Below, piece by piece: positions 149 through 64,000 of a DNA stretch of 64,000 bases. Positions within the stretch are counted from its first letter, which is position 1, and each line of letters opens with the position of its first letter. Below the pieces are notes generated by a model. The model had not been told where the DNA came from. It worked only from the letters and a program-made list of their open reading frames with translations, and ran no database searches. Position numbers and translations under genes: made by a program. The stretch comes from Escherichia coli (GTDB lineage: Bacteria; Pseudomonadota; Gammaproteobacteria; Enterobacterales; Enterobacteriaceae): NCBI RefSeq assembly GCF_051903065.1, contig NZ_CP178438.1, one strand, 5' to 3'.

Positions 149-1153
149 GTGAAACTGGATGAAATCGCTCGGCTGGCGGGAGTGTCGCGGACCACTGCAA
201 GCTATGTTATTAACGGCAAAGCGAAGCAATACCGTGTGAGCGACAAAACCGTTGAAAAAGTCATGGCTGTCGTGCGTGAGCACAATTACCACCCGAACGC
301 CGTGGCAGCTGGGCTTCGTGCTGGACGCACACGTTCTATTGGTCTTGTGATCCCCGATCTGGAGAACACCAGCTATACCCGCATCGCTAACTATCTTGAA
401 CGCCAGGCGCGGCAACGGGGGTATCAACTGCTGATTGCCTGCTCAGAAGATCAGCCAGACAACGAAATGCGCTGTATTGAGCACCTTTTACAGCGTCAGG
501 TCGATGCCATTATTGTTTCGACGTCGTTGCCTCCTGAGCATCCTTTTTATCAACGCTGGGCTAACGACCCGTTCCCGATTGTCGCGCTTGACCGCGCCCT
601 CGATCGTGAACACTTTACCAGCGTGGTTGGTGCCGATCAGGATGATGCCGAAATGCTGGCGGAAGAGTTACGTAAGTTTCCCGCCGAGACGGTGCTTTAT
701 CTTGGCGCGCTGCCGGAGCTTTCTGTCAGCTTCCTGCGTGAACAAGGTTTCCGTACTGCCTGGAAAGATGATCCGCGCGAAGTGCATTTTCTGTATGCCA
801 ACAGCTATGAGCGGGAGGCGGCTGCCCAGTTATTCGAAAAATGGCTGGAAACGCATCCGATGCCGCAGGCGCTGTTCACAACGTCGTTTGCGTTGTTGCA
901 AGGGGTGATGGATGTCACGCTACGTCGCGATGGTAAACTGCCTTCTGACCTGGCAATTGCCACCTTTGGCGATAACGAACTGCTCGACTTCTTACAGTGC
1001 CCGGTGCTGGCAGTGGCTCAACGTCACCGCGATGTCGCAGAGCGTGTGCTGGAGATTGTCCTGGCAAGCCTGGACGAACCACGTAAGCCAAAACCTGGTT
1101 TAACGCGCATTAAACGTAATCTCTATCGCCGCGGCGTGCTCAGCCGTAGCTAA
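149..1153 (+). CDS. cra: Catabolite repressor/activator Cra (FruR), LacI-family regulator
   Basis: 334-codon ORF with GTG start at 149; N-terminal HTH ([15 protein letters not shown]) and periplasmic-binding-like fold typical of LacI/GalR family; matches Cra in length and sequence as recalled. Confidence 0.96.
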
Positions 1154-1169
1154 GCTGCGAACAAAAATA

Positions 1170-1197
1170 CGCGCCAGGTGAATTTCACTCTGGCGCG
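1170..1197 (+). terminator. Inverted repeat (8-bp stem CGCGCCAG/CTGGCGCG, 12-nt loop) 17 nt after cra stop; possible cra 3' hairpin, no U-tract
   Basis: Perfect inverted repeat read directly from sequence; IS1 is inserted immediately 3' of it. Confidence 0.35.
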
Positions 1198-1199
1198 TA
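1191..1199. repeat. IS1 target-site duplication, left copy (TGGCGCGTA)
   Basis: Identical 9-mer found again at 1968-1976, immediately flanking both IS1 ends. Confidence 0.85.
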
Positions 1200-1254
1200 G
1201 GTGATGCTGCCAACTTACTGATTTAGTGTATGATGGTGTTTTTGAGGTGCTCCA

Positions 1255-1530
1255 GTGGCTTCTGTTTCTATCAGCTGTCCCTCCTGTTCAGCTACTGACG
1301 GGGTGGTGCGTAACGGCAAAAGCACCGCCGGACATCAGCGCTATCTCTGCTCTCACTGCCGTAAAACATGGCAACTGCAGTTCACTTACACCGCTTCTCA
1401 ACCCGGTACGCACCAGAAAATCATTGATATGGCCATGAATGGCGTTGGATGCCGGGCAACAGCCCGCATTATGGGCGTTGGCCTCAACACGATTTTACGT
1501 CACTTAAAAAACTCAGGCCGCAGTCGGTAA
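1255..1530 (+). CDS. insA: IS1 InsA (transposition inhibitor / N-terminal part of InsAB' transposase)
   Basis: 91-aa ORF with zinc-finger-like CPSC...CSHC motif and HTH, typical IS1 InsA. Confidence 0.93.
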
Positions 1531-1952
1531 CCTCGCGCATACAGCCGGGCAGTGACGTCATCGTCTGCGCGGAAATGGACGAACAGTGGGGCTATGTCGG
1601 GGCTAAATCGCGCCAGCGCTGGCTGTTTTACGCGTATGACAGGCTCCGGAAGACGGTTGTTGCGCACGTATTCGGTGAACGCACTATGGCGACGCTGGGG
1701 CGTCTTATGAGCCTGCTGTCACCCTTTGACGTGGTGATATGGATGACGGATGGCTGGCCGCTGTATGAATCCCGCCTGAAGGGAAAGCTGCACGTAATCA
1801 GCAAGCGATATACGCAGCGAATTGAGCGGCATAACCTGAATCTGAGGCAGCACCTGGCACGGCTGGGACGGAAGTCGCTGTCGTTCTCAAAATCGGTGGA
1901 GCTGCATGACAAAGTCATCGGGCATTATCTGAACATAAAACACTATCAATAA
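1449..1952 (+). CDS. insB: IS1 InsB reading frame (expressed as InsAB' fusion by -1 frameshift)
   Basis: 167-codon ORF in the -1 frame relative to insA, overlapping its 3' end; matches IS1 InsB. Confidence 0.9.
1504..1514 (+). other. IS1 programmed -1 ribosomal frameshift motif (A6C slippery run)
   Basis: TTAAAAAACTC located in the insA/insB overlap, at the position expected for IS1 frameshifting. Confidence 0.6.
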
Positions 1953-1967
1953 GTTGGAGTCATTACC

Positions 1968-1976
1968 TGGCGCGTA
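1968..1976. repeat. IS1 target-site duplication, right copy (TGGCGCGTA)
   Basis: Direct repeat of 1191-1199. Confidence 0.85.
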
Positions 1977-2450: not shown

Positions 2451-2480
2451 TTGACAAGCTTTTCCTCCGCTCCGTAAACT
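2451..2480 (+). promoter_or_regulatory. Candidate Pmra promoter of the dcw cluster (-35 TTGACA at 2451-2456, -10 TAAACT at 2475-2480)
   Basis: Consensus -35 hexamer with 18-bp spacer to a -10-like hexamer, about 50 bp upstream of mraZ ATG; position consistent with the described mra promoter. Confidence 0.6.
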
Positions 2481-2487
2481 CCTTTCA

Positions 2488-2512
2488 GTGGGAAATTGTG
2501 GGGCAAAGTGGG
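2488..2512 (+). promoter_or_regulatory. Three direct GTGGG repeats at 10-bp spacing; MraZ operator-like
   Basis: GTGGG at 2488, 2498 and 2508 between the promoter and the mraZ start; MraZ is described as binding direct TGGGN repeats in this position. Confidence 0.6.
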
Positions 2513-2531
2513 AATAAGGGGTGAGGCTGGC

Positions 2532-2990
2532 ATGTTCCGGGGAGCAACGTTAGTCAATCTCGACAGCAAAGGGCGCTTATCAGTGCCTACCCGTTATCGG
2601 GAACAGCTGCTTGAGAACGCTGCCGGTCAAATGGTTTGCACCATTGACATTCATCACCCGTGCCTGCTGCTTTACCCCCTGCCTGAATGGGAAATTATCG
2701 AGCAAAAATTATCGCGTCTGTCGAGCATGAACCCGGTTGAGCGCCGTGTGCAGCGCCTACTGTTAGGTCATGCCAGCGAATGTCAGATGGATGGCGCAGG
2801 TCGATTGTTAATCGCGCCAGTACTGCGGCAACATGCCGGGCTGACAAAAGAAGTGATGCTGGTTGGACAGTTCAACAAGTTTGAGCTGTGGGATGAAACA
2901 ACCTGGCATCAACAGGTCAAGGAAGATATCGACGCAGAGCAGTTGGCTACCGGAGACTTATCGGAGCGACTGCAGGACTTGTCTCTATAA
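2532..2990 (+). CDS. mraZ: Transcriptional regulator MraZ
   Basis: 152-aa product starting [16 protein letters not shown] within the 2496-2990 ORF; first gene of the dcw cluster. Confidence 0.96.
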
Positions 2991-2991
2991 A

Positions 2992-3933
2992 ATGATGGAA
3001 AACTATAAACATACTACGGTGCTGTTGGATGAAGCCGTTAATGGCCTCAATATCCGTCCTGATGGCATCTACATTGATGGGACTTTTGGTCGCGGTGGTC
3101 ACTCACGTCTGATCCTCTCGCAGCTTGGCGAAGAGGGGCGTTTGCTGGCGATCGATCGCGACCCGCAGGCTATCGCCGTTGCGAAGACTATTGATGATCC
3201 GCGCTTCTCCATCATCCACGGACCTTTCTCCGCGCTGGGCGAATACGTTGCCGAGCGCGATCTTATCGGCAAGATCGACGGCATTCTCCTCGATCTTGGT
3301 GTCTCTTCACCGCAACTTGATGATGCTGAACGCGGCTTTTCCTTTATGCGCGATGGTCCGCTGGACATGCGTATGGACCCAACCCGTGGGCAGTCAGCCG
3401 CTGAATGGCTACAAACCGCAGAAGAAGCCGATATCGCCTGGGTATTGAAAACCTATGGTGAAGAGCGTTTTGCCAAACGCATTGCCCGCGCCATTGTCGA
3501 GCGTAACCGCGAACAGCCGATGACCCGCACCAAAGAACTGGCGGAAGTCGTGGCTGCTGCAACGCCGGTGAAAGATAAGTTTAAACATCCCGCGACCCGT
3601 ACCTTCCAGGCGGTGCGCATTTGGGTAAACAGTGAACTGGAGGAGATAGAGCAGGCGCTAAAAAGCTCGCTCAACGTGCTGGCCCCGGGGGGGCGGCTTT
3701 CGATCATCAGCTTCCACTCGCTGGAAGACCGTATTGTGAAACGTTTTATGCGTGAAAACAGCCGCGGTCCGCAAGTTCCGGCAGGGTTACCGATGACTGA
3801 AGAGCAGCTCAAAAAACTGGGTGGCCGTCAGCTGCGAGCACTAGGCAAGTTAATGCCGGGCGAAGAAGAGGTGGCTGAGAACCCTCGTGCCCGTAGTTCA
3901 GTTCTGCGTATTGCAGAGAGGACGAACGCATGA
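2992..3933 (+). CDS. rsmH: 16S rRNA m4C1402 methyltransferase RsmH (MraW)
   Basis: 313-aa product starting [16 protein letters not shown]; SAM-binding motifs; start chosen inside the longer 2863-3933 ORF, one nt after mraZ stop. Confidence 0.95.
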
Positions 3934-34941: not shown

Positions 34942-34958
34942 AATTGGTAAGACCAATT
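34942..34958. promoter_or_regulatory. PdhR box (AATTGGTAAGACCAATT palindrome) in the pdhR promoter region
   Basis: Perfect 17-bp palindrome matching the ATTGGT-N3-ACCAAT PdhR operator consensus, 32 bp upstream of pdhR ATG. Confidence 0.8.
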
Positions 34959-40518: not shown

Positions 40519-40692
40519 TGGTAATCTCATGAATGTATTGAGGTTATTAGCGAATAGACAAATCGGTTGCCGTTTGTTGTTTAAAAATTGTTAACAATTT
40601 TGTAAAATACCGACGGATAGAACGACCCGGTGGATAATGGGCGTCATAAAAAAAACGTCAGACCCGCCGGAGATAAATATATAGAGGTCATG

Positions 40693-62652: not shown

Positions 62653-62738
62653 AACGTATCCTGATGGCTAAAGTCAGATCGATCGCATTCTAACAGTCGA
62701 AATCAGGCGGGCAATGGTTTTTAGTGTGGGGAAAATGT

Positions 62739-62761
62739 TCGCACCAGAGCAGAACTCTGGT
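62739..62761 (-). terminator. Hairpin downstream of yadC (minus strand)
   Basis: GCACCAGAG-cagaa-CTCTGGTGC perfect inverted repeat 27 nt past the yadC stop. Confidence 0.4.
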
Positions 62762-62787
62762 GCGATGAGGAAGGAATGACGTTTTAC

Positions 62788-63900
62788 TTATTCGTAGGTA
62801 AAGGAGAAGGTCGCGTTACCTGAAAAGGTTCCAACACCGACAGCAGCACCACTGCCATCCGGTACCAGCTGCGCCGTAAAAGGTAAAAGCAGCAGGTTGT
62901 TTGACCAGACGGCGAAGTTATAGTCAACCGTGTTGCTACCATCTGCTTTTAACAATACTTTGCTATTGTCATAAGTTGAATTTACTTTTACAGCCACGCC
63001 TGAAGCCGAGCCAGTCGTTTTACCCACCAGTGTGGCATCGCTGGGTTTATTTGCCGCTTTCAACTTAACCGTAATTTTACTGGCATAACAGTATTCAGCA
63101 CGGATAGAAAAAGGGATTTCCCGCGTAAGCCCATTTTTCACTTCCGAAACATAGCTGTTCCCAAGCGTTACCTGGTTGCCACTGACGTTGCCCTGATCTT
63201 GTGCCAGGGCAACTGTTGCACAGGTCGGTTCGTCAACGTAAAAATGAACGGAGCTTGTATCAACGAAAAAATTTATCCATGGTTGGTCATTATTGCCTAT
63301 ATACCAGGAAGCTATTTTACCTGGCATCGCAGTTCCTTCTGAAACCCCATTTTGAGGTTTAAATTCCGGGGTCCAGTAAAAACGAAATCGTAAATACCAG
63401 CTATCGTCACTATACTCATAGGCCCACTTTGAGCTGGCGTTATCTGTATGATTATCTGCACCACTTTGTGCAGGAAGATACAAATCAAGCTCCTCCGCGG
63501 CTCCACAACTTGTACATACTAATTCTACTGAATAAACAATACCGGGAACGGTTGTTTTCAATAAAGCATTGCCATGGTTGGTAGTATAGGTTGATAAGAG
63601 GCTGGCATCAGCAGTATTAAGAAAATGCACCGAGCTTGTGTTACTACCTAAGGATTTACAACCAATCTTATCGCCCCGAAGATCAATATGAGAATCCCAG
63701 GTCGCGAAGGATATTTCTTCCGGGACTGTGACCATCGCTGACTGTATACTGAAGGGCTTTGGGTTTATCACCATATCATAAGGCCCTTCAGCATTTCTCT
63801 CTATATAACATTCATTCGCCAATGCATACCAGGATGTGGTAAAAAATAGCAGTATCGCACTGCATAACTGAATCAACAGTTTATTGCCTTTCCTTTGCAT
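62788..63900 (-). CDS. yadC: Fimbrial tip adhesin-like protein YadC (chaperone-usher fimbrial subunit family), divergent allele
   Basis: 370-aa ORF with signal peptide and C-terminal pilin-like domain ending ...ATFSFTYE; position between panB and yadK matches yadC; shorter than the 412 aa I recall for K-12. Confidence 0.85.
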   Translation of the reverse strand: MQRKGNKLLIQLCSAILLFFTTSWYALANECYIERNAEGPYDMVINPKPFSIQSAMVTVPEEISFATWDSHIDLRGDKIGCKSLGSNTSSVHFLNTADASLLSTYTTNHGNALLKTTVPGIVYSVELVCTSCGAAEELDLYLPAQSGADNHTDNASSKWAYEYSDDSWYLRFRFYWTPEFKPQNGVSEGTAMPGKIASWYIGNNDQPWINFFVDTSSVHFYVDEPTCATVALAQDQGNVSGNQVTLGNSYVSEVKNGLTREIPFSIRAEYCYASKITVKLKAANKPSDATLVGKTTGSASGVAVKVNSTYDNSKVLLKADGSNTVDYNFAVWSNNLLLLPFTAQLVPDGSGAAVGVGTFSGNATFSFTYE

Positions 63901-63911
63901 AATTATCCTTA

Positions 63912-64000
63912 TTATTCGTAAGATACGTTAACAATAACCTGGCTTCTCACCATTCCCGATTCAGGAGGAAGGGCATTATTCACCCGCTGCATACGGGAAT
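63912..64000 (-). CDS. yadK: 3' end of an upstream fimbrial subunit gene (yadK-like), partial
   Basis: Only one minus-strand frame is open across the last 89 bp, ending ...SQVIVNVSYE-stop 11 nt upstream of the yadC start with GGA ribosome-binding site between; context matches the yad fimbrial operon. Confidence 0.45.
   Translation of the reverse strand, partial: SRMQRVNNALPPESGMVRSQVIVNVSYE

Follow-up and report, generated by a model that had tools for sequence, protein, structure and literature searches.

The segment at positions 2451–2531 of the Escherichia coli DNA analysed here (contig NZ_CP178438.1; the window is the whole stretch of 64,000 nucleotides) is the sigma-70 promoter Pmra (mraZ1p) of the mra/dcw operon together with the MraZ operator, a reading to which we assign a probability of roughly 95%. 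Both elements are already known; together they are the textbook control region of this E. coli operon for division and the cell wall. A first-pass annotation of the same sequence had described a dcw promoter, TTGACA-N18-TAAACT, followed by GTGGG repeats at 2488, 2498 and 2508. The coordinates of both hexamers and all three repeats are exact, as is the 10-bp spacing, and the distance of about 20 bp from the repeats to the mraZ start measures 19 nt. The window also contains an IS1 element upstream of the promoter, at a site where K-12 has none. Coordinates of all features are listed in Table 1.

Table 1. Features of the cra-mraZ region, in window coordinates.
Feature	Position	Strand	Basis or description
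cra (fruR)	149–1153	+	334-aa ORF; LacI and Peripla_BP Pfam domains; annotated cra in matching genomes
GC-rich hairpin directly 3' of cra	1168–1199	+	TACGCGCCAGGTGA-ATT-TCACTCTGGCGCGTA; RNA fold -23.2 kcal/mol
IS1 target-site duplication, left copy	1191–1199	.	TGGCGCGTA; direct read
IS1 (IS1A-like), 768 bp	1200–1967	+	insA 1255–1530, insB frame 1449–1952
IS1 target-site duplication, right copy	1968–1976	.	TGGCGCGTA; direct read
Pmra (mraZ1p) -35 hexamer TTGACA	2451–2456	+	read from sequence; consensus scan
Pmra -10 hexamer TAAACT	2475–2480	+	after 18-nt spacer AGCTTTTCCTCCGCTCCG
dcw/mra operon transcription start	2487–2488	+	MG1655 89589 and 89590 transferred
MraZ box 1 GTGGG	2488–2492	+	direct read, pattern search
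MraZ box 2 GTGGG	2498–2502	+	direct read, pattern search
MraZ box 3 GTGGG	2508–2512	+	direct read, pattern search
Shine-Dalgarno-like GAGG	2523–2526	+	5 nt before mraZ ATG; direct read
mraZ	2532–2990	+	152 aa; Pfam PF02381, E = 4.2e-47
rsmH (mraW), second operon gene	2992–3933	+	Pfam MraW methylase, E = 7e-124

Pmra, its start site and the MraZ boxes

In a simple consensus scan of 1100–2700, TTGACA-18-TAAACT is the top promoter-like site, with 10/12 matches. Its spacer of 18 bp is suboptimal in length and falls within the 16–19 bp of sigma-70 promoters, and the mapped start lies within the 5–9 nt after the -10 hexamer that such promoters use. Transcription start positions were carried over from MG1655 coordinates, and the mapping was verified on identical sequence. 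The Cappable-seq start at 89590 on the + strand (score 27.2; PMC4782308 supplement) is the strongest of the cra-mraZ intergenic region in MG1655 and corresponds to G2488 in the window, while the 5'-end profiling of Kim 2012 places the mraZ start at 89589 (29 reads, 45-nt UTR; PMC3415461 supplement), corresponding to A2487; the promoter sequence given there with the mapped start ends ...CCGTAAACTCCTTTCA. The two genome-wide datasets, which are independent of each other, give mraZ a 5' UTR of 44–45 nt in MG1655 and place the start 6–7 nt past TAAACT, the geometry expected for such a hexamer, in agreement with the earlier call of a dcw promoter. Comparison with the mapped Pmra start had been proposed as a check on that call, and in MG1655 the strongest mapped start falls at 2487/2488. 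The orthologous K. pneumoniae start also has a 45-nt UTR, with identical -35 and -10 hexamers (PMC3415461). An older mraZ UTR of 38 nt, as quoted in PMC5089854, would put the start at A2494, within the operator and 13 nt past TAAACT. The newer datasets differ from this position by 6–7 nt and fit TAAACT better, the 38-nt-UTR start suiting it poorly. Weaker Cappable-seq starts on the + strand occur at 89237 (score 2.1) and 89360 (score 9.4), equivalent to window positions 2135 and 2258, both between IS1 and Pmra; the sequence TAAAAT at 2247–2252 precedes the latter.

The GTGGG boxes repeat with a 10-bp period and are separated by the 5-nt spacers AAATT and GCAAA; the 19 nt from box 3 to the mraZ ATG (2532), AATAAGGGGTGAGGCTGGC, include the GAGG Shine-Dalgarno sequence. 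GTGGG-N5-GTGGG-N5-GTGGG has a single occurrence on both strands of the 64-kb window and appears in 0 of 100 dinucleotide-preserving shuffles, and a looser search (TGGG-N6 x3, one mismatch permitted) returned the MraZ boxes as its sole match in the window. Inspection by eye showed no fourth in-phase box; the GTG that follows, at 2521, comes 13 nt past box 3 and is part of the Shine-Dalgarno region. According to the published accounts, E. coli MraZ binds repeats upstream of mraZ and represses Pmra from a site 3' of the -10 box (Eraso 2014, via PMC7761207), and the repeats have been termed "MraZ boxes" (PMC8475190). The general motif is given in PMC12957436 as three GTG(G/T) boxes with 6-nt spacers that are bound cooperatively, and MraZ boxes are defined there as at least three such direct repeats with a 10-bp period, which is what the window holds at 2488–2512. 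The order of elements (-10 end at 2480, start at 2487/2488, boxes over 2488–2512, ATG at 2532) is likewise that of an MraZ operator. Judged by every sequence-level criterion, the window element is the MraZ operator. The first-pass view that the operator follows the promoter stands insofar as the boxes lie 3' of the -10 hexamer; the array is not wholly downstream, since it overlaps the start site, which sits at the 5' edge of box 1 with G2488 as the first base of the box. An operator that overlaps the start site fits autorepression.

The locus has the same organization as in K-12, where Pmra and an MraZ operator of three direct repeats were described (Hara 1997, Eraso 2014) between cra and mraZ-rsmH-ftsL-ftsI, and the rest of the dcw cluster after rsmH is collinear with that of K-12. 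First, the stretch 2475–2534 is found verbatim in MG1655, so that the -10 hexamer, the three boxes and all sequence up to the ATG are identical. From the -35 hexamer to the ATG there is one difference, in the promoter spacer, where the window has C2466 and K-12 has A; most E. coli carry C, which K. pneumoniae also has at this position. Second, 3,507 of 5,423 complete E. coli genomes match the window at 100% identity over the 96 bp at 2445–2540. Third, the gene after the boxes encodes a bona fide MraZ, with two PF02381 stretches and the DXXXR motifs DSKGR and DGAGR (D11-R15, D87-R91). The match to the MraZ autoregulatory operator that had been proposed is borne out by the K-12 identity from -10 to ATG and by the MraZ gene downstream. 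The protein differs from K-12 MraZ at one residue, 41 (codon at window 2652–2654), which is His in the window and Tyr in K-12. The same protein, WP_001295770.1, occurs in strains 23CRST027, 1585m1 and WS3294A, and the shared accession suggests that the His41 form is probably a common allele.

Strain WS3294A (NZ_CP035819.1) is the most divergent of the 5,423 genomes across the 96-bp core. A 5-bp deletion, CAGTG, aligned to 2486–2490, removes the mapped start and the GTG core of box 1, and WS3294A is by its sequence a natural operator/start-site variant in which box 1 is missing.

Relative to MG1655, the remaining window is collinear at 98–99% identity. Differences were seen between aceF and lpd, where ~148 bp of K-12 sequence are replaced by ~30 bp (40633–40664); near rpnC/panC, where there is a small rearranged junction (60618–60722) with 91.6% identity downstream; and at the yadC fimbrial-adhesin end (62665–64000), which does not align. 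No IS other than the IS1 at 1200–1967 emerged from this whole-window comparison.

The promoter/box architecture is widely conserved, and the -35 hexamer is shared across Enterobacterales. One genome per species, 100,044 species in all, was scanned for GTGG-N6-GTGG-N6-GTGG-N(11-41)-ATGTTYMGNGG, and at least 120 loci match, against a rough chance expectation of ~4. All 123 matches listed precede an ORF homologous to E. coli MraZ (27–96% identity), a specificity that is partly built in, as the pattern contains the MFRG start codons. The matches listed span Enterobacterales, Pasteurellales, Alteromonadales, Legionellales, Beta- and Deltaproteobacteria, Rokubacteria and a Firmicutes MAG. Among the 117 non-identical loci in the matches listed, TTGAC lies no more than 50 nt upstream of box 1 in 99, with a modal distance of 37 nt, as in the window, and a TANNNT hexamer lies 4–9 nt before box 1 in 87. 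In the same 117 listed loci, the three positions before each GTGG are ~60% A, the GTGG core keeps a strict 10-bp phase, and the fifth box position is G in 49%.

MraZ arrays of other bacteria share with the window GTG(G/T) cores, a 10-bp period and A-rich spacers, as well as a position at or after the -10 hexamer that overlaps the start and is directly upstream of mraZ. They differ in detail. Mycoplasma genitalium has a 4-box AAAGTG[T/G]-N3 array, compared with three boxes with GTGGG cores in the window, and its start falls inside box 1 as described in PMC12957436; the Bacillus subtilis array is GTGG[A/T]G x3, and its repeats are reported to be needed for repression (bioRxiv 2022.02.09.479790); Burkholderia cenocepacia has 4 repeats. 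In the window, 19 nt lie between box 3 and the ATG; in other taxa the gap, counted from the 4-nt GTGG core, is mostly 20 or 30–31 nt. Mutation of the boxes is reported to cause a stepwise, cooperative loss of binding and repression (PMC12957436).

An IS1 element between cra and Pmra

The inserted element has the hallmarks of the IS1 family: a length of ~768 bp, terminal repeats of ~23 bp (the imperfect inverted repeats GGTGATGCTGCCAACTTACTGAT and GGTAATGACTCCAACTTATTGAT), the insA/insB frameshift layout, and a target-site duplication, TGGCGCGTA, that is perfect over 9 bp, the family norm being 8–9 bp. It is the single IS1 copy in the window, its transposase is directed towards mraZ, and in strain 23CRST027 it is annotated as "IS1-like element IS1A family transposase". 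Compared with IS1 insertions in other E. coli intergenic regions, the element itself is ordinary. Its right end is 483 nt before the -35 hexamer, so the IS1 noted earlier at about 480 bp upstream is real; 564 nt of the cra-mraZ intergenic region remain between IS1 and mraZ, and removal of IS1 and one copy of the duplication restores the K-12 intergenic length of 601 bp. Within the element, positions 1694–1697 read GGGG in the window and GGG in 23CRST027, whose transposase is annotated as frameshifted; the difference is either real or a homopolymer sequencing error in one assembly.

The insertion lies exactly at the 3' foot of the GC-rich hairpin that follows cra, and the duplication TGGCGCGTA is the 3' arm of this hairpin. 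The hairpin has no T-run after it and was not called a terminator in the scan; candidate roles are a cra terminator, an mRNA stabiliser or a REP-like element. An IS1 at or near this site is present in 4 of 5,426 complete E. coli genomes, and three of the 5,426 match the IS1-bearing segment 1100–2600 end to end. The segment in strains 23CRST027 and 23CRST031 (both from human faeces, Ecuador) is that of the window apart from the one-base G-run indel inside IS1. In 1585m1, an IS1B is inserted 26 bp further downstream with the duplication TCAATATC (about 1626–2400 of locus L002), and WEM25 carries an inverted IS1 at the exact TGGCGCGTA target (2737–3504 of locus L127) between K-12-like flanking alleles, a different allelic background that identifies it as an independent insertion event. 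In a query with the empty site, 7 of 5,423 genomes have an interruption no more than 200 bp away from it, and four of these were identified. The stretch 2475–2534 is intact in all four IS1 carriers. At least three independent insertions at or near the site point to a local IS1 hot spot just 3' of cra. The further proposal that TGGCGCGTA is a strong natural IS1 hot spot, and that IS1 there might alter cra 3'-end formation or read-through into dcw, is doubtful and rather improbable as a whole; if true, an IS1 insertion would have consequences for the dosage of cell-division genes.

A related question is whether a Pmra that is intact in sequence could nevertheless be affected from a distance, with IS1 altering dcw or cra expression and its presence being selected rather than neutral. 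This could occur by polarity that blocks cra read-through, by transcription reading out of insAB, or by changed DNA bending or nucleoid-protein binding. The transposase faces mraZ, a search of the + strand between IS1 and Pmra found no intrinsic terminator or terminator-like site, IS1 has arrived at the site, or within 26 bp of it, on three or more separate occasions in E. coli, and the WEM25 insertion uses the identical 9-bp target in opposite orientation. Yet 483 bp separate IS1 from the -35 hexamer, every mapped start (2135, 2258 and 2487/2488) is downstream of it, and insertions in both orientations argue for a target preference and not for a directional effect on expression. Just 7 of 5,423 genomes are interrupted at the site, and the carriers are IS1-rich: the number of places holding an IS1 is 37–40 per genome, the median being 11, in keeping with passive accumulation. 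The fragment associated with PdhR (primer matches at ~2311–2590) is also kept. An effect of IS1 on expression is therefore unlikely, and the element would be expected to leave Pmra and its operator, whose sequence is untouched, functionally untouched as well. A literature search on IS1 insertions upstream of mraZ returned nothing relevant.

Searches for other regulatory elements were negative. No PdhR box (ATTGGTNNNACCAAT, no more than 3 mismatches) lies in the intergenic region, and the total in the window is below the shuffle mean; the sole perfect PdhR box in the window, at 34943, is that of the known pdhR operator region. A weak interaction of PdhR with mraZ has been reported, with 1.7-fold enrichment by ChIP. 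A permissive Rfam scan of 1100–2700 found no RNA family.

G-tracts and alternative promoters

The G-rich character of the boxes raises a second alternative, in which the G-tracts act mainly as a G-quadruplex, instead of or besides protein-binding boxes, and throttle dcw transcription or translation. Positions 2490–2521 on the + strand fit the canonical four-tract pattern G3+N1-7 x4 as GGG-AAATTGT-GGGG-CAAAGT-GGG-AATAA-GGGG, with loops of 7, 6 and 5 nt, and the motif extends over the MraZ boxes into the Shine-Dalgarno region. With the start at 2487/2488, the transcript includes all four tracts. The structure could form either in DNA, on the non-template strand, or in the RNA of the 5' UTR; in the latter, the fourth tract reaches into the Shine-Dalgarno region. 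A 2025 paper describes an intramolecular G-quadruplex downstream of Staphylococcus aureus PmraZ and claims its conservation in Gram-negatives (PMC11796246). Against this, the window holds 3 such motifs compared with a mean of 1.7 in mononucleotide shuffles, which is not exceptional; the minimum-free-energy fold that ViennaRNA, run with its G-quadruplex option, gives for the 5' UTR contains no quadruplex; loops of 5–7 nt give weak quadruplexes; and a GTGG core in strict 10-bp phase, with G at only 49% of fifth positions among the 117 listed loci, is more what one expects of a protein-recognition box than of a G3 tract. A G-quadruplex as the main function of the repeats would thus be surprising, and this reading was not adopted for a motif that is unenriched over shuffles and outside the predicted fold.

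A third alternative places the main dcw promoter at another point of the 601-bp intergenic region and makes TTGACA-18-TAAACT and the repeats incidental. Its likelihood is negligible: the further + strand starts at 89237 and 89360 are the observations in its favour, but they are far weaker than 89590 by Cappable-seq score, Kim 2012 lists 89589 as the sole mraZ start, and the -35/-10/box layout is conserved from Enterobacterales to Deltaproteobacteria.

Proposed autoregulation at the start site

With Pmra and the MraZ operator as the preferred reading, the following mechanism is proposed. RNA polymerase would use TTGACA-18-TAAACT and initiate at A2487/G2488, the point from which the three GTGGG boxes follow at intervals of exactly one helical turn. 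MraZ, a ring-forming protein of the AbrB/SpoVT type with its two DXXXR motifs, is encoded first on the transcript and may bind the boxes cooperatively such that neighbouring subunits touch successive boxes on one face of the DNA. Bound MraZ would occlude the start site and the initial transcribed region; with box 1 starting at +1 and the array reaching to +25, it should block open-complex formation or promoter escape. The result would be a negative autoregulatory loop over mraZ-rsmH-ftsL-ftsI and the genes downstream. MraZ binding and Pmra repression are in this scheme carried over from the literature on K-12 and, by analogy, on other species.

The first-pass annotation had also held that the promoter and operator were left intact despite the nearby IS1. 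This agrees with the position of the element upstream of the starts at 2135, 2258 and 2488, and with a 96-bp core that the window has in common with most complete E. coli genomes. The nearby IS1 spares the promoter, the operator and the mapped starts, and so the sequence gives no grounds for expecting dcw to be regulated differently in this strain.
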